This document shows, piece after piece, positions 16,391 through 24,241 of a stretch of DNA of 64,000 nucleotides. The notes under the pieces are model-generated. The model was not told where the DNA came from and made no database searches. It saw nothing but the letters and a program-made list of their open reading frames with translations. Source of the DNA: Escherichia phage 4E10. Made by a program: the position numbers and the translations under genes. How positions within the stretch are numbered: the first letter of the stretch is position 1; every line of letters begins with the position of its first letter. The stretch is from sequence record OQ689735.1. One strand, given 5' to 3'.

Positions 16391-16442
16391 CTCATGTTAT
16401 GTCAGTAAGATTATTATAACACAACACGAGGGACTTGTAAAC
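16391..16442 (-). repeat. conserved promoter-leader cassette, copy 1 (near-identical to 32183-32238)
   Basis: ~53 nt nearly identical in both copies; carries early promoter, leader and RBS. Confidence 0.8.
16413..16441 (-). promoter_or_regulatory. T4-type early promoter (TTTACA -35, 17 nt, TATAAT -10)
   Basis: minus strand GTTTACAAG..N17..TATAAT upstream of the 96-aa ORF. Confidence 0.6.
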
Positions 16443-18499
16443 TACATCTTGAACTTTTTAGACATTCCGTTGATGTTAACCAAAGAAGCCAAGATTTGAG
16501 AAACTTCGTTTTCCTCTTCTTTTGATTCTTCTACAAGGAATTGATTAAACCCAGCCATTGGACGAACTTCGCCAGTTTCCATTAGATGATCGCCATCATA
16601 TACCGATTCTTCTAATTGTTCAGAAGGAGGAACGATTGTGCCTTCGATTAGATACTTGTTATAAGCAGTTTCTTTCATCATGTACGTGCTTACTTTATTA
16701 ATCTTCAACAAAATTCCACGCGGTAGAATAACTTCAGCTTCTGATGGAAATCCCGATAAATGACCTGGAACGATAACTTTGATTCGCTCAGCCCCTTTAA
16801 TTACCATACCTACGCTAGTTTCAGCATCTTCATTCGCATAAGCAGAATGACTACCCATATGCATCAAATCTTCTGCATCAACAGAACCTTCTCCTTCGCC
16901 AGAAAATACTGCACCGGAATCATCTAGAGCCATATAGTTTTTACCATGCTCACCGAAGATATTTGGTTTAAGCGATGTGGATACGAAGTTCTTGAAATAG
17001 AACATTTTGTTTTCAATGTTATGACGCAAAGTTTTAAAGGTAACTTCTTGTCCACGATAAAGCGTAGTTCCTGGAGGAAGAACTGATCCTTTGGCGAATG
17101 CAGAATCCAGAGTCTCGATGTGCTTAATAGCTCTTTCCATGTATTCTTCACGGGTAGAATCTGGTTTACCCAAAAGGAACGAGTTCATTTCAACATATGA
17201 ATCTGCACAATAATCTTCAATTACATCAGATTCAGCCTGAGTCAGTCCTTTTGGAGTTACTTCGGTGCTTGCGTATTCATATGCCTGAGCAGCAGATTCA
17301 TTAATCAATTTATAAATGCCATTCATGACAAATTGAATAATAGCTACCTTTTCGTCTGGTGTGGCTTTAGAACCTTTAACTAAATCATTGATAATTTTCT
17401 TAATAACATCAAAGCTATTAGAAATATTAATGTCAGCTAGATCGCTCAAAATTTTATCGGTTTTATAATCAAAAAATTCTTTATTCTTTAAATATTCTTG
17501 AGAACCTTGATGTGTTATATCGCTCTGCAGTCTGATAGACGGATCACGTAAACGTGCATGGGCCAATGCAATATGATTTCGGAAGCTTTCTAGTTCATAA
17601 TCGTTAGATTTAAAACGAGAAGCACTTCTCATACCACCGATAGCTCCTTTGCCGAAGTTTGAACCAATCTGAATAACGCCAGAGTTCATTGGTCCTTCTG
17701 CTTTATATACCGGAACTTTAGATTCAAACTCTTGATATTTCTTAGCGGCGAAGCTATCACCCTGTAGCGAAGCATCGACAGTAGAATATTGAGCTTGTGC
17801 TGCTAATCGACGACTAATTTTAGTTTTCTGAATAACAGCTTGATCCGTGCGCTTATCATTTTCTAAAGCAATAGAAGCAGCAACAGCAACAGCTTTAGGA
17901 ACAGCATTACCTGTTTTAACGTCTACATAAACATCACCAACCTTTGATTCAACTTTTGTGAATAACTCAGTTGAAATAGGAGGTACACCTGGAATGTCTT
18001 CTAAATTGGCATTTTTACGGTAAACCATAATATATGCATACTTTTTATCATAGTCCCAGATTTCCTTTAAAAGAACATATCGACCTGCTCCTTTAGTACG
18101 TACTAAACGGTCAGCAATAACTTGCATTTGACGAGCTGCGCCATTTGTTTTACTTTTTAGTACGCGGAATAAGCATGCGTCGATTTTATACTGCTTCATT
18201 GTTTGAAGAGCAGTATCAAAAACCGCATTAATGACGCCAATTGGATTTCCACCCAAGTTTCTAAGTTTAACCAGCGATAATTTCTCGTTGACACCTATCA
18301 TTACGATATGCATCATTTTATCGCCTGGCTTAACGTTTTTATTTGTATCACCACCAGAGGTGTATGTACAAAATCTAAATCCAGGAAGCACACTTTCTTC
18401 GCCGGCTTGAATAGCAAAAATTTGTGGTATTTTATGCTTAGGATTTAAGTTAACAACCGGCGCCGAAGCGCCGTCAAATAATTCTGTAATAAGTTCCAT
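16442..18499 (-). CDS. Alt-like ADP-ribosyltransferase, second paralog
   Basis: 685 aa; N-terminus MELITELFD and C-terminal R-S-E motifs (LYRGQ, FVSTSL, EAEVILPRG) parallel the upstream Alt. Confidence 0.8.
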   Translation of the reverse strand: MELITELFDGASAPVVNLNPKHKIPQIFAIQAGEESVLPGFRFCTYTSGGDTNKNVKPGDKMMHIVMIGVNEKLSLVKLRNLGGNPIGVINAVFDTALQTMKQYKIDACLFRVLKSKTNGAARQMQVIADRLVRTKGAGRYVLLKEIWDYDKKYAYIMVYRKNANLEDIPGVPPISTELFTKVESKVGDVYVDVKTGNAVPKAVAVAASIALENDKRTDQAVIQKTKISRRLAAQAQYSTVDASLQGDSFAAKKYQEFESKVPVYKAEGPMNSGVIQIGSNFGKGAIGGMRSASRFKSNDYELESFRNHIALAHARLRDPSIRLQSDITHQGSQEYLKNKEFFDYKTDKILSDLADINISNSFDVIKKIINDLVKGSKATPDEKVAIIQFVMNGIYKLINESAAQAYEYASTEVTPKGLTQAESDVIEDYCADSYVEMNSFLLGKPDSTREEYMERAIKHIETLDSAFAKGSVLPPGTTLYRGQEVTFKTLRHNIENKMFYFKNFVSTSLKPNIFGEHGKNYMALDDSGAVFSGEGEGSVDAEDLMHMGSHSAYANEDAETSVGMVIKGAERIKVIVPGHLSGFPSEAEVILPRGILLKINKVSTYMMKETAYNKYLIEGTIVPPSEQLEESVYDGDHLMETGEVRPMAGFNQFLVEESKEEENEVSQILASLVNINGMSKKFKM

Positions 18500-18502
18500 G
18501 AT

Positions 18503-20590
18503 TTATCCTTGAACGAACTTGTAAGGCATGTTTGTAATATCTATGCAAGACGCAATAATTCCAAGAGATGATTCGACTTTCTGTTTAACATTTGATGAAA
18601 CAAATGACGCAAAATCAACTCTGTCTTCTATATCACCTGTCATTGTAACCAATTCACCAGTTTCCATTAAATGGTCTCCGTCATAGATTACCGATTCGGT
18701 GAGTTCTTCTGTGGTCATAACTTCAGCTTGAATGAGTTTTGTATTATTAGATGTTGTTCCGTCATTATTAGAAGCATCAGTTATTTTATTAACTTTGACC
18801 ATCAATCCACGCGGTAGAATAACTTCAGCTTCTGTTGCTATTCCGAGACTTCCTGGATATACAACATTAACTTTATGAGCTCCATCAATTGCCCATCCTA
18901 TTTGAACTTTAACGTATTCAGGATTTTCTTTATACGCTCTTATTTCGTTTGGATTAATAGTTATTCCTTCTTCATTTTTATCAACTGTTAATTCATTACG
19001 AGCTTCTGGTTCTAAAAGACCAATACCAGCATGTGTGATTCCAAAACGTCCAAAAATGATAGGAGTTAAAGAAGTAGATACAAAATTTCTGAAGTAGAAC
19101 ACTTTATTTTTAACTAACGCTTCATATATAGGAGCAGTCATACTTTGAGCACGATAAACTGTAATGCCTTCTGGTATACGGTCACCATTTTCAAAAGCTG
19201 AATCTAAGTTATTTATAGCAGATTCAATTTCTTTTTCACTCATTACATCATATCGTTCTGGATTGTAGCGGCCTAAAAGAAGATTATTGATGTCAGTATA
19301 TCCTGAACCGCAATATTCTCTAATGCCACGCTTTTGCGATGGAGTATATTTAGAACCATCACGGGCAATAGTAATATCAATCATTGGACCTGCACCAATT
19401 CCGGAAAAGCTATAAATCATTCGTTTGAGGAATTTAGTTTTTGCTGCGTTCCAAGAATTTTTAGTTATTTCTTCCCAGACTTCATCTGGCTGCCCTTTAC
19501 GAGTTTTATTATGTTTATCAAGCCAATTATCTTTATATTCTTCAAAGAATTGATTAACAGCTGCTGCGTATTTCTCTAAACATTTTATTGAAGTAGTTGG
19601 TTCATTTTTAATCGCATTAAGAATTACATCTTTAATTTTTTCAGAAACTTCATTAACCTCACTTTTTGAAAAGAATTTATAGTCATAGTGAAGTTCATCT
19701 GCGGTTCCTTCGGCAATGATTTTTGCTGCCTTAGTTTTAGAAGCTAATGAATTAATTCCAAGCTTCATTTCTTCTGCTTCGGGAATTAAAGGAGCGGTAG
19801 CAGGTTTATTGAAATTAGCTGCGGTAGATTCATACTTCTGGAATAATTCACTTTCAAATCTAGAAGATTCCAACGACTGACTTTGCGCAATTGCTCTACG
19901 TGAAATTTTAACTTTAACGATTACCGCTTGGTCAGAACGTTTATCATTTTCTTGCGCAATAGATGCTGCAATTGCCTCATTTTTAGTTACTTGGGCTCCA
20001 GTATCTTTATTGATATAAACATCACCGACCTTCGATTCAACTTTAGTAAAGAGCTCGGTACTAATTTCCGGAACTCCTGGAATGTCTTCTAGTGATACAT
20101 TTTTGCGATGTATAAGAATATATGCATACTTTTTATCATAATCCCAGAGTTCCTTGAGAAGGACGTATCTGCCACCTGAACGACTACGGATAAGTCTATC
20201 AGCAATAACTTGAATTTGTCGAGCTTGTCCAGCAGTTTTAGACTTAAGAATACGAAGCATACAAGCATCAATTTTATATTGACGCATTGTTTGCATTGCA
20301 ACAGTAAAAACTGAATTGATATAATTAATTGGGCTTGGACCAAGACCTTTTAATTTAGCAATTGAACCTTTAGCAGTTAATGTAAAAGGAACAATGTGCA
20401 TCATTTTGTCGCCCATTTTTAAATCGCGATTAGTATCACCTCCAGATGTATATGTACATAAACGAAAGCCTGGTTGTTCAATTGCATCATCAACATGAAC
20501 TGAAAAAATTTGTGGTATTTTCTTCTTTGGATTTAAGTTTGTAATCGGAAGAGTAGTATCTTCGTCAAATAATTCTGTAATAAGTTCCAT
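18503..20590 (-). CDS. alt: ADP-ribosyltransferase Alt
   Basis: N-terminus MELITELFDEDTTLPITNLNPKK as in T4 Alt; R-S-E motifs VYRAQ, FVSTSL, EAEVILPRG. Confidence 0.85.
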   Translation of the reverse strand: MELITELFDEDTTLPITNLNPKKKIPQIFSVHVDDAIEQPGFRLCTYTSGGDTNRDLKMGDKMMHIVPFTLTAKGSIAKLKGLGPSPINYINSVFTVAMQTMRQYKIDACMLRILKSKTAGQARQIQVIADRLIRSRSGGRYVLLKELWDYDKKYAYILIHRKNVSLEDIPGVPEISTELFTKVESKVGDVYINKDTGAQVTKNEAIAASIAQENDKRSDQAVIVKVKISRRAIAQSQSLESSRFESELFQKYESTAANFNKPATAPLIPEAEEMKLGINSLASKTKAAKIIAEGTADELHYDYKFFSKSEVNEVSEKIKDVILNAIKNEPTTSIKCLEKYAAAVNQFFEEYKDNWLDKHNKTRKGQPDEVWEEITKNSWNAAKTKFLKRMIYSFSGIGAGPMIDITIARDGSKYTPSQKRGIREYCGSGYTDINNLLLGRYNPERYDVMSEKEIESAINNLDSAFENGDRIPEGITVYRAQSMTAPIYEALVKNKVFYFRNFVSTSLTPIIFGRFGITHAGIGLLEPEARNELTVDKNEEGITINPNEIRAYKENPEYVKVQIGWAIDGAHKVNVVYPGSLGIATEAEVILPRGLMVKVNKITDASNNDGTTSNNTKLIQAEVMTTEELTESVIYDGDHLMETGELVTMTGDIEDRVDFASFVSSNVKQKVESSLGIIASCIDITNMPYKFVQG

Positions 20591-20613
20591 CATAGCCTCT
20601 CTAGTGTTTATTC

Positions 20614-20621: not shown

Positions 20622-20626
20622 AAATT

Positions 20627-20644
20627 AAAGGCCCGAAGGCCTTT
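20627..20644 (-). terminator. stem-loop aaaggcc-cgaa-ggccttt
   Basis: 7-bp GC stem with tetraloop just after the stop of the 62-aa ORF. Confidence 0.5.
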
Positions 20645-20831
20645 AGTAATCTAGTGGTAAGAGAGTACGATATATTTCAAACTTTGGTCCTTTTTCATAG
20701 GCATCAAATGTTTCTGTAAATTTATTGTAAGCATATGCATCTACAAATTCGAGAATGACTTGTGATACAGAAGTAGAAACATCTCCACCTTCTTTTTGAG
20801 CAATGACAATTGTTTCTAAGTAAGCTTTCAT
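20643..20831 (-). CDS. hypothetical 62-aa protein
   Basis: ORF overlapping the ligase stop by 4 nt. Confidence 0.5.
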   Translation of the reverse strand: MKAYLETIVIAQKEGGDVSTSVSQVILEFVDAYAYNKFTETFDAYEKGPKFEIYRTLLPLDY

Positions 20832-22291
20832 AAACCAGTTACCTCATGAAAATCGCCAAATACATCCTCGAATGTATTAGCTTTAGTTTTATCTTCACGT
20901 AAACGAATCGCAATCGGAAGAAATAATTTAACGTAATCAGTGCGGCCATCAGATTTTAACCAACCGTTGCATTCGCACTCTAGAATTTTTCCAATATAAT
21001 AATTTTGGTTTTCCATAATGCGAGTACGGTCAAGTTCATGCGATTTTACACCAGCTTTATCTTTTAAGCCTGAACCAGCATTTACTTTAATTTTTCCACA
21101 CTCTGACTCAAGAATAAATCCACCCGCTTTAGTAGGGTCTTTACGGTGAGGATAAATTCCTACAATTTTTAAATCAACATCAATTATTTCTTTAAATTTA
21201 TAAAGATTTTTTGAACGAGCATTTTCCCATAATCCATCGATATTTTTGAGAATAATACCTTCAAGACCTTGGTCAATATACTTTTTATAAATTACCTTAG
21301 CTTCATCTAGGTTATTTACTACCTGGTTTTCAATTAAAATTACTTTATCATAACCTGATGTCATTTGTTCTAGTTTAGAAAAACGTACATCATATTTCAA
21401 ACGAAATGCAGGAAGACCGTATATTTCTACCAACGGGACATAATCCCAGACCTGAAACTTCATGCATTGAGCTTCTTTTTCAGAAATGGTTCCCTTTAAA
21501 GATTTATTAGCGATTCCATTAGAAGTAGTACGTGATTCAGCTACTTCGGCGAATTCTTTAGCTTTACTAATTTCAGGATAAGCATCAAAAAGAAAATCTA
21601 GGCCTTCTGGTTCCTTTTCAACTTGCTCATGGTATACCAATTCGCCATCAATTAACACACCTTCTGGATGAATCTGGCGAGCTTCTGCAGTCATTTTGAT
21701 TAACTCTTCCTTGAGAAGATCTAATCCTAGATATTCATTACCAGCTCGTGATAAAAGACGAACATCATCTAATTCATCACCTCTGACTTCAGCAAAGCAC
21801 CGAGCTCCATCAGCTTTTAATTGGGCAAAGGCTGGAAATTTGATATTCTTATTAATGCCTTTTTCATCATAAGAACTTGCCAGCATTTGAGGTTGTTCAG
21901 GAATTAAACCTGGCCAAACTTTGTTTGCAATAGATACTGATGCACCACATTCAAGGTCTCGCATCATCACCCGACGCAAAACTTCAACATCATCTTTTTT
22001 ACCGTCAGCAATATATCCAGTTAATTCCTCAATTGCCGCATTTCCGGTCAATTTCCGAGTAGCTAACGTGAATTCAATGAAGTCAAGCATATCGGTAAGA
22101 GTCAACATTCCAAAACTCTGGGTAGCAATACCAGGTTTAGGCCATTTCTTGATATAATACTGTAACCCACGAGAATAAGTCAGACGATATACTCGTTTAA
22201 GTAATTCATTATCTTTATTCTTTTCAAGAATTGCTTGCTTCTGCTTAGTTGAACCAATAGATGCTATTTCGTTCAGAATTTTAAGAATCAT
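20828..22291 (-). CDS. 30: ATP-dependent DNA ligase gp30
   Basis: 487 aa; N-terminus MILKILNEIASIGSTKQKQAILEKNK as in T4 DNA ligase. Confidence 0.93.
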   Translation of the reverse strand: MILKILNEIASIGSTKQKQAILEKNKDNELLKRVYRLTYSRGLQYYIKKWPKPGIATQSFGMLTLTDMLDFIEFTLATRKLTGNAAIEELTGYIADGKKDDVEVLRRVMMRDLECGASVSIANKVWPGLIPEQPQMLASSYDEKGINKNIKFPAFAQLKADGARCFAEVRGDELDDVRLLSRAGNEYLGLDLLKEELIKMTAEARQIHPEGVLIDGELVYHEQVEKEPEGLDFLFDAYPEISKAKEFAEVAESRTTSNGIANKSLKGTISEKEAQCMKFQVWDYVPLVEIYGLPAFRLKYDVRFSKLEQMTSGYDKVILIENQVVNNLDEAKVIYKKYIDQGLEGIILKNIDGLWENARSKNLYKFKEIIDVDLKIVGIYPHRKDPTKAGGFILESECGKIKVNAGSGLKDKAGVKSHELDRTRIMENQNYYIGKILECECNGWLKSDGRTDYVKLFLPIAIRLREDKTKANTFEDVFGDFHEVTGL

Positions 22292-22557
22292 TGTTCATCC
22301 TTTAGAGTTTGGTTTACAGCTCTATTATAAATCAATTCATCATTAAGCTCAGTCAAAGACCTGTGGTACGTGGTTCTAACTTTATTTCCTTGCATCCAGT
22401 GCTTGACGTAAATGAAACCTTGCTCTACACATTTTTTAAAAATTCGTTCGTCTTTTTGAGCTCGAAATTCTGGATTGCATCTAAAAAATTGATTTACGTG
22501 ACCGTAATCACGTGTAGTATTACCTTCATTTTCATAAATAGTGTGAACGACAAACAT
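22288..22557 (-). CDS. hypothetical protein (30.1 position)
   Basis: 89-aa ORF; ATGA overlap with ligase. Confidence 0.55.
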   Translation of the reverse strand: MFVVHTIYENEGNTTRDYGHVNQFFRCNPEFRAQKDERIFKKCVEQGFIYVKHWMQGNKVRTTYHRSLTELNDELIYNRAVNQTLKDEQ

Positions 22558-23393
22558 TAGAATGCTCCTTGGAAAATATTATCACCACCAGTAGGTCTAT
22601 TATACAAATACTCTATGCCACCAGGTTTAATATAGTTCCATGTCTGAAACGGATGTGTCTGATATGGATGATATAGATTATAAGGATTAAATCCAGGAGT
22701 TCTCCAGGTAGTGTTCCAAGGAAAAGAATCATTTTTAATCATCTTTTCAATTACATCTTTTATAGCTTTTTCACTATCAAAACTTTCTTTATTTTCCTTC
22801 GATGGAAAAAGCTTATTCTCTACATCATTCCATGTATAAACTCGCTGCGCAGTTTTTGGAATACTGTCACGCTCCCCTCGAGCCATCCAATAAACAGGAA
22901 CATTTAATATTTCACTCGCGTGATCGCAGTGGTGAGCGAGATCGTCAATATAACAAATTACGTTATATTTCTCTTTTGCCTTTTTGAACAACTCTTCTTT
23001 TGAAGAATCATGACCACACATCAATACTTCTGAGAAGGCACCAGGAAAAAGAGCATTCAAATTAAATTGACGATTTAGCAGAGCGTCAATAGAATCACCC
23101 AATGCTGTAACAGCTACAAAATTATAATCTTCTTTTAATTTGTTAATTACACACAGGGCATCTTTATACGGAGACAAGTAACGAATAAAATCTGAACGAT
23201 TGTATTTTTCAATTAACTTGACACCAAGTTCTTCATCGCAATTAAAGAGCTTACCAGGAGAAATAAATTTTTCGTCCTGAATCATTTTTAAAATATGTTC
23301 CAACGGAAGATTATATTTTTGGGCAAAATAAGGAAGACCTGATTGCCAGCTTAAACATACACCATCAATATCAGTTAAAATAGTAGGCTTCAT
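22557..23393 (-). CDS. HAD-superfamily hydrolase, 5'-nucleotidase-like
   Basis: 278 aa; HAD motif I DIDGV near N-terminus and YIDD motif. Confidence 0.65.
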   Translation of the reverse strand: MKPTILTDIDGVCLSWQSGLPYFAQKYNLPLEHILKMIQDEKFISPGKLFNCDEELGVKLIEKYNRSDFIRYLSPYKDALCVINKLKEDYNFVAVTALGDSIDALLNRQFNLNALFPGAFSEVLMCGHDSSKEELFKKAKEKYNVICYIDDLAHHCDHASEILNVPVYWMARGERDSIPKTAQRVYTWNDVENKLFPSKENKESFDSEKAIKDVIEKMIKNDSFPWNTTWRTPGFNPYNLYHPYQTHPFQTWNYIKPGGIEYLYNRPTGGDNIFQGAF

Positions 23394-23854
23394 AGAGAGT
23401 CTCTTAATAGGTTTAACACATCAATAAATTCAGCTTCAGTTAGTATTGTATCATCTTTTGTTAGACCACTAGCCATGCTGTGCTTCAAAACTTTTCCTTT
23501 CGAGGCTTGTAATGCATCACGAAAGCCCTTGTTTTGGATCGCTGCCTCAAAATACGCATTTGTGTATAATTCTTTCCAGGCTGGGGAGTATCTTGAAAAC
23601 GGAACTCCAAGCCAGAAGAGGGTCCCACGGTCCTGAGCTCTAGCATAAGACCTTCCAGCTTGTTGGGCGGCAAGCCCGGATAACCCAAATATACGTCTTT
23701 GCTGTTCAACATTTTTCACCTTACATCCTTGGAGGAATCCTTCGAGACCTCCAAATTGAATGCCATCCATAACGAAAGGCCAATAGGCGAAATTACTTAA
23801 TGCACATGATGGCCACCTAAAATTACTTCTAATCTCTAACTCAGACATTTTCAA
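23390..23854 (-). CDS. NADAR/YbiA-family (DUF1768) protein
   Basis: 154 aa; LSNFAYWPF..DG..FxxxEGFLQGCK core resembles E. coli YbiA. Confidence 0.6.
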   Translation of the reverse strand: MKMSELEIRSNFRWPSCALSNFAYWPFVMDGIQFGGLEGFLQGCKVKNVEQQRRIFGLSGLAAQQAGRSYARAQDRGTLFWLGVPFSRYSPAWKELYTNAYFEAAIQNKGFRDALQASKGKVLKHSMASGLTKDDTILTEAEFIDVLNLLRDSL

Positions 23855-24047
23855 TGCTTATAATTTCAACATCAGCCCAATGACCATAGTTTGGTAGACG
23901 AAATTCAACTGGCCAGTCACTGCCTTTTTCTAATATAATAGACTCAACTTGCGGTTCTTCATGTTCATCAGTATATGGATTTTTATCTGTTACTTTATAT
24001 GTGACCTTAATGTACTGAATTCCAAAAATCTTATTAATTATATTCAT
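23841..24047 (-). CDS. hypothetical 68-aa protein
   Basis: ORF in compact 30.x cluster. Confidence 0.5.
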   Translation of the reverse strand: MNIINKIFGIQYIKVTYKVTDKNPYTDEHEEPQVESIILEKGSDWPVEFRLPNYGHWADVEIISIENV

Positions 24048-24241
24048 ACTAATTCCTTTAATCCGTAAATAGGAGATAATTCATCACCCATACGAAGGTC
24101 TTCATTTCCATCTACCCAGGAAACAATATAAGCCTCTTTTATTTGAACACCACTCCATTTAAATGGAGGTAGAACCTTAGAAATTAATCCAGGTATACCA
24201 ACTTCCTTTAATTCAACAGTTTGACCTAAAAAGAATTTCAT
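24044..24241 (-). CDS. hypothetical 65-aa protein
   Basis: ORF in compact 30.x cluster; 4-nt overlaps. Confidence 0.5.
   Translation of the reverse strand: MKFFLGQTVELKEVGIPGLISKVLPPFKWSGVQIKEAYIVSWVDGNEDLRMGDELSPIYGLKELV

Follow-up and report, generated by a model that had tools for sequence, protein, structure and literature searches.

The adfN (30.3) gene of T4-like Escherichia phage 4E10 and its neighbour, a putative NT5C-like HAD phosphatase

AdfN and its described relatives

Gene 30.3 of phage T4 encodes a NADAR protein that counters a host DNA-modifying toxin, and has been renamed adfN, for anti-DarT factor NADAR (Johannesman et al., Nat Commun 2025, PMC11825919). Deletion of adfN leaves T4 and T2 unable to form plaques on DarTG1 hosts, and RB69 is rescued by ectopic adfN, with E36A and K43A substitutions weakening that rescue (PMC11825919). 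Purified AdfN alone strips DarT1-made ADP-ribose from DNA in vitro, and adfN is without effect on the thymidine-modifying DarTG2 (PMC11825919). Hydrolysis of guanosine-ADP-ribose in vitro by phage gp30.3 was reported in an independent study (PMC11125620). In HIDEN-SEQ, a transposon screen of T4, 30.3 insertions are lost on DarTG1 (log2FC -7.25, q=0); the gene is dispensable without DarTG1 and has no LB-versus-M9 phenotype (bioRxiv 10.1101/2025.11.20.689424). When T4 infects, the host toxin DarT1 ADP-ribosylates guanine in phage DNA, and AdfN, as a stand-alone NADAR-fold hydrolase, cleaves the N-glycosidic bond between ADP-ribose and guanine. Removal of ADP-ribose restores replication and allows the phage to resist DarTG1, and thymidine-ADP-ribose, the DarTG2 product, is not a target. 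T4 AdfN fails to protect uninfected cells from DarT1, where it cannot replace DarG1, and rescues T5 and Bas25 only weakly (PMC11825919). Part of the mechanism may therefore depend on a T-even cofactor; full T4 AdfN activity is confined to T-even infections, and an additional T-even protein has been proposed (PMC11825919).

Two other groups of NADARs provide points of comparison. The DarG1-type antitoxins, such as the Geobacter lovleyi NADAR (8bat), are the closest relatives of gp30.3. The phage protein differs from these, and from PnNADAR (8bau), in being an orphan without a DarT partner, and from the DarG1-type NADARs in carrying a histidine on the last strand instead of aspartate. E. coli YbiA (2b3w) shares ~21% identity with gp30.3, belongs to a branch defined by a last-strand glutamate, and has its known associations with riboflavin intermediates and with the dinG operon rather than with phage counter-defence. 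This last-strand residue separates the branches: Glu in YbiA, Asp in DarT-linked proteins and His in phage gp30.3 (PMC11125620).

The 30.4 to 30 block and adfN in phage 4E10

The window analysed here is the whole 64,000-nucleotide stretch of Escherichia phage 4E10 (OQ689735.1). Positions 22200-24100 match 688 phage records, with 99.0% identity to Shigella phage SH7 and ~98% to RB51, RB68 and RB14. The source phage is a Tequatrovirus (T4-like), and the region is the 30.4-30.3-30.2-30.1-30 block of such a phage, tightly packed with overlapping stop and start codons (1-8 nt between neighbours). Gene names were assigned against the T4 reference annotation, and all block genes lie on the minus strand. 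The features are:

25442-25421: upstream terminator-like hairpin (consensus scan only)
25034-25005: promoter-like site (consensus scan only)
23841..24047, minus: 30.4, 68 aa (ORF list and T4 annotation)
23390..23848, minus: 30.3 = adfN, NADAR-fold DNA (guanine-N2) ADP-ribosylglycohydrolase, 152 aa from ATG
23743-23741, minus: catalytic codon E36 of adfN
23722-23720, minus: catalytic codon K43 of adfN
23482-23480, minus: H123 of adfN, family-invariant
22557..23393, minus: 30.2, putative C1-capped HAD-superfamily phosphatase, NT5C-like, 278 aa
23372-23358, minus: gp30.2 motif I, D8-x-D10-G-V12
23108-23106, minus: gp30.2 motif II, T96
23000-22998, minus: gp30.2 motif III, K132
22946-22941, minus: gp30.2 motif IV, D150-D151
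22288..22557, minus: 30.1, DUF3045, 89 aa (Pfam PF11243, E 2.9e-64; T4 annotation)
20828..22291, minus: 30, ATP-dependent DNA ligase (Pfam DNA_ligase_A_M, E 1.6e-32)
between alt and gene 30 in the listed order, minus: alt.1 (T4 reference)
20626..20645, minus: terminator-like hairpin downstream of ligase/alt.1 (consensus scan only)
18503..20593, minus: alt, packaged ADP-ribosyltransferase (Pfam ADPrib_exo_Tox, E 1.8e-37)

Upstream of 30.4 lie rIII, 31 and cd. The block is bracketed by the hairpins at 25442-25421 and 20645-20626, both found by consensus scan only, and transcription of the unit probably ends at the latter, on its 3' side. The HAD and NADAR genes had been described as standing next to DNA ligase; the ligase is indeed nearby, but gene 30.1 sits between it and 30.2, with overlapping stop and start codons at both ends. 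The end of 30.4 and the beginning of adfN share 8 nt, which makes translational coupling of these two genes probable. On DarTG1, 30.4 insertions are partly depleted in HIDEN-SEQ (log2FC -1.79, adjusted p 0.014; bioRxiv 10.1101/2025.11.20.689424). This depletion, which bears on the T-even cofactor proposed for AdfN, might stem from polarity or disturbed translational coupling acting on adfN, or could reflect assistance of AdfN by gp30.4. Two complete ADP-ribosyltransferase genes of the Alt type stand in tandem on the minus strand, at 16442-18499 and 18503-20593, and their paralogous products (685 and 696 aa) share 41% identity; T4 retains the second copy solely as the fragments alt.-1 and alt.-2.

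The original prediction placed a 154-aa NADAR gene on the minus strand at 23390-23854. That frame exists and contains ALSNFAYWPFVMDG, but the start requires correction: 23854 begins a TTG, and the ATG chosen in the T4 annotation follows two codons later, at 23848, giving a 152-aa product from 23390-23848. Homologues of gp30.3 and gp30.2 are found by tblastn in 1510 and 1452 phage records, respectively, so neither is a chance ORF. The 4E10 protein is orthologous to T4 AdfN, likewise 152 aa and encoded between 30.4 and 30.2, with 150/152 residues identical; the substitutions relative to T4 are Q22Y and I125M. The catalytic residues E36 and K43 lie in the E-x-x-x-Q-x-x-K helix and align with the corresponding E/K of YbiA in hhalign; together with H123 they are kept from T4 and are invariant in the family alignment (E38, K45 and H125 when numbered from the TTG). 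The RB69 allele is inactivated by a 15-residue truncation that removes the C-terminal helix (PMC11825919). Since 4E10 gp30.3 is co-linear with T4 to its last residue it is free of this truncation, and its C-terminal helix is intact, appearing at 140-153 in the model. On the strength of its 99% identity to T4, full length and intact E36/K43/H123, the 4E10 allele would be expected to counter DarTG1.

Placement of gp30.3 among the NADARs depends on sensitive comparison. The protein matches Pfam PF08010 (Phage_30_3) over all 138 profile positions (1-138, E 1.5e-69) and does not match the NADAR model PF08719 at E<=0.1, below the gathering score; an Acinetobacter-phage orthologue gives a sub-threshold E of 0.0094 with PF08719. 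PHROGs and NCBIfam searches returned no function, a single-sequence PDB search gave nothing usable, and a word-index homologue search recovered 22 close relatives only. The relationship emerges only when profiles are aligned with profiles or when folds are compared. With an 8-sequence family profile, E. coli YbiA is the top PDB sequence match at a marginal E of 0.044, and hhalign of the family against YbiA gives 84.6% probability and E 6.8e-6 over 99 columns, spanning the SNFAxWP...DG...E..Q..K core. YbiA, annotated as an N-glycosidase, is also the best structural match, and gp30.3 has the alpha+beta NADAR fold of core helices flanked by small beta hairpins. The NADAR/YbiA-family assignment, made originally from this same core, is thus correct by profile-profile comparison, although the Pfam check suggested for it finds no PF08719 domain. 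Where the YbiA subfamily has its last-strand glutamate (VEHT), the gp30.3 family has an invariant histidine (LKHS), and gp30.3 belongs to the phage gp30.3 subfamily (PF08010), outside the YbiA subfamily.

An internal ORF annotated in T4, 30.3' (75 aa; 23485-23712, minus, in the +1 frame inside adfN), is intact in 4E10. Tequatrovirus and RB69-like phages retain it at 74-75 aa (in a few cases 53 aa). The +1 frame of more distant gp30.3 genes mostly holds short open stretches of 10-54 aa, and the few ORFs of 67-88 aa there are attributed to chance. As only close relatives preserve it, 30.3' was rejected as a conserved coding gene.

The HAD protein gp30.2

Gene 30.2 was proposed to encode a HAD-type nucleotidase on the basis of two short motifs. 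The 278-aa minus-strand ORF at 22557-23393 begins MKPTILTDIDGVCLSW and contains VICYIDDLAHH, and both DIDGV and YIDD are present. Direct searches are uninformative: no Pfam or NCBIfam model reaches threshold with gp30.2 itself, a single-sequence PDB search gave nothing usable, the protein family (phrog_420) is of unknown function, and a literature search on gene 30.2 found no paper. Alignment of 33 sequences reveals all four HAD motifs (DxDx(T/V), S/T, K/R and DD) as D8xD10GV, T96, K132 and D150D151. In 114 sequences at 21-34% identity D8, D10, R108 and K132 are invariant, with T96 and D150/D151 almost invariant. AF2 predicts the core with confidence, pLDDT staying >90 up to roughly residue 200. 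This core has the Rossmannoid HAD fold, and six helices (residues 16-86, ~70 residues) placed after motif I and before the strand of motif II form a helical C1 cap. Assignment of gp30.2 to the HAD type is solid.

Residues ~200-278 (22557-22790) are a mostly disordered tail in the AF2 model, with residues 228-278 predicted as disordered, and are rich in aromatic residues and proline. The tail is kept in Tevenvirinae-like homologues and absent from most ~200-aa homologues, and ends in a conserved motif, GIEY..N(R/Q)PT here and G(I/T)GIEYLNRQPTA in relatives, which may be a docking peptide.

Among solved HAD enzymes, the 5'(3')-deoxyribonucleotidases of the NT5C type (cdN/mdN; PF06941) are the closest structural and sequence neighbours of gp30.2. 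The top PDB sequence match of the gp30.2 profile is the cdN structure 2jao (E 0.016), in which DvDGvlvkWqSGL is aligned with NMDGVLADFESGL of gp30.2. The same structure is the top Foldseek match (E 2e-8), with cdN, mdN and 3bwv giving the best TM scores and rmsd. Shared features comprise the HAD core with its helical C1 cap, the D-x-D-G-V of motif I, and, at the eighth position beyond the nucleophile, an aromatic residue followed by S-G-L. An exhaustive profile search yielded 1492 representatives; the Pfam NT5C model is matched by 43/113 distant relatives (best E 4.2e-10) and 5/33 close ones (best E 1.2e-4), and gp30.2 itself does not match PF06941, making the link to this model transitive only. 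The two differ in that identity is 14-20%, leaving gp30.2 below the Pfam threshold, and in the extra ~80-residue disordered C-terminal tail. The 2jao profile match, the Foldseek ranking and the 43 matching relatives nonetheless point to an NT5C-like nucleotidase as the best-supported subfamily. Of the proposed description, "HAD" is firmly supported by motifs and fold, and "nucleotidase" follows from likeness to NT5C enzymes. The protein is probably a C1-capped HAD phosphomonoesterase that requires Mg and most resembles the 5'(3')-deoxyribonucleotidases, and it most likely dephosphorylates a nucleotide-like small molecule in phage DNA or nucleotide metabolism, a substrate suggested by these relatives. 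In HIDEN-SEQ, 30.2 insertions are tolerated at 72/72 sites on K-12 and there is no LB-versus-M9 effect (log2FC -0.10 in M9; bioRxiv 10.1101/2025.11.20.689424). A conditional need for gp30.2 in minimal medium was rejected on the latter result.

Neighbouring genes and alternative roles

Neighbours were compared for 30.2 homologues from IMG/VR, grouped at 70% identity into 25 clusters. These homologues are located among replication and repair genes, and a T4-type ligase is found within ~700 bp on the same strand in 23 of the 25, for example at 4408-6588 of contig L097 and 3492-6243 of L003 (among L034-L110 and others). Two of the 23 have an inverted order, such as endoVII-PhoH-ligase-30.2-UvsY. 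In T4-like phages 30.2 adjoins ligase far more consistently than 30.3. Phi1/RB49-like contigs (L027 and L028, 5977-7954) have 30.3 directly upstream of ligase and no 30.2 within 6 kb, and Aeromonas phage 65 (L003) has the order gp32-30.2-hydrolase-ligase with no 30.3 in that block. The "hydrolase" of phage 65 is a 194-aa ORF (4099-4683 of L003) with no Pfam match at E<=0.01. In the three annotated phages examined beyond the T4-like group, linkage to ligase is weak or missing: the homologue of Rhodobacter phage RcWata stands beside a MazG-like pyrophosphohydrolase, and no ligase lies near that of Kyanoviridae phage C48C1 or of the Pseudomonas jumbo phage examined. The adjacency of 30.2 and ligase, lost in these three phages, may therefore reflect gene order kept by descent, and a functional link is no more than possible.

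A dedicated role for gp30.2 as a ligase-associated NT5C-like phosphatase at the T4-type replication and repair machinery is a speculative and rather unlikely proposal. Such a protein may clear 3'-phosphate or nucleotide by-products around nicks, or edit a nucleotide made by host defence, and it could be anchored to another protein through the conserved GIEY...QPT peptide at its C-terminus; if true, this role would explain why 30.2 stays beside ligase across the Straboviridae despite rearranged gene order. It is unlikely that gp30.2 instead works together with ligase in healing DNA ends, for instance as a 3'-phosphatase acting at nicks, and is not a small-molecule nucleotidase. Helical caps typify small-molecule HAD phosphatases, whereas PNKP-type DNA phosphatases are capless, and the gp30.2 model, with ~70 residues of helical cap separating motif I from motif II, departs from the capless (C0) architecture that gives access to DNA ends. 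Furthermore, NT5C enzymes outrank Pnkp in both Foldseek and profile searches, HAD_PNKP is matched by 1/113 relatives, ligase adjacency disappears in the three annotated phages examined outside the T4-like group, and 30.2 is dispensable whereas ligase is essential.

The original prediction had implied that the HAD and NADAR genes work together, and had raised the possibility that the NADAR protein erases the phage's own ADP-ribosylation. The latter, with Alt, ModA or ModB targets on host proteins or RNA as substrates, is very unlikely, even though gp30.3 is encoded near alt and Aravind-lab surveys report NADAR-ART co-expression in T4-like phages. Alt modifies arginine in proteins, a linkage other than that of guanine in DNA. 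Every tested NADAR, gp30.3 included, targets guanine-linked ADP-ribose in DNA (PMC11825919, PMC11125620), the DarTG1 phenotype accounts fully for a gene that T4 can dispense with when DarTG1 is absent, and insertions in alt carry no cost on DarTG1 (HIDEN-SEQ). This suggestion is thus unsupported; alt is context only, and no evidence ties it functionally to adfN. Still more improbable, and already largely refuted, is a two-enzyme unit in which the HAD protein serves as the T-even factor of AdfN or disposes of freed ADP-ribose. Consistent with such a unit, 30.2 and 30.3 overlap by 4 nt (ATGA) and stand side by side in Tequatrovirus, RB69-like and Acinetobacter phages, a T-even protein has been proposed for full AdfN activity (PMC11825919), and RB69, in which ectopic AdfN works, carries its own 30.2. 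Yet on DarTG1, where 30.3 is lost, 30.2 insertions are neutral (log2FC -0.12, p 0.61, 71 sites; bioRxiv 10.1101/2025.11.20.689424), purified AdfN de-ADP-ribosylates DNA alone (PMC11825919), 30.3 lies within 6 kb in only 9/25 clusters of 30.2 homologues, and some phages have 30.3 directly before ligase without 30.2. The neutrality of 30.2 insertions means that gp30.2 is not needed for AdfN function, and it was rejected as the missing cofactor; the published data argue that the T-even factor is another protein. The implied pairing is thus without support, and 30.2 and 30.3, the former dispensable even on DarTG1, are neighbours and not a proven pair. Least credible is that gp30.3 acts as a YbiA-type N-glycosidase detoxifying riboflavin-pathway intermediates. 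Its top structural match is YbiA, but it lies on a separate NADAR branch with a last-strand histidine in place of the YbiA glutamate (PMC11125620), its closest relatives are the DarG1-type NADARs, and 30.3 lacks an LB-versus-M9 phenotype (HIDEN-SEQ).

Very probably, then, gp30.3 of phage 4E10 is AdfN, a counter to DarTG1, and gp30.2 is a separate NT5C-like HAD phosphatase that AdfN does not require. The original observation is confirmed, and its interpretation as a counter to DarT-like DNA ADP-ribosylation is supported, having already been established for the orthologous, 99%-identical T4 protein (PMC11825919, PMC11125620, bioRxiv 10.1101/2025.11.20.689424). Some of the experiments proposed with it are likewise in print: activity of the purified protein on ADP-ribosylated DNA for T4, and infection of DarTG1 hosts with and without the gene for T4 and T2, whose deletion mutants cannot plaque (PMC11825919). 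Its neighbour gp30.2 appears to be an ordinary, uncharacterized NT5C-like HAD phosphatase, conserved but dispensable. The use by a lytic phage of an orphan NADAR "antitoxin" to erase DarT1 ADP-ribose marks from its DNA is real biology, published in 2024-2025 for the near-identical T4 gene, to which 4E10 adds only another intact allele.
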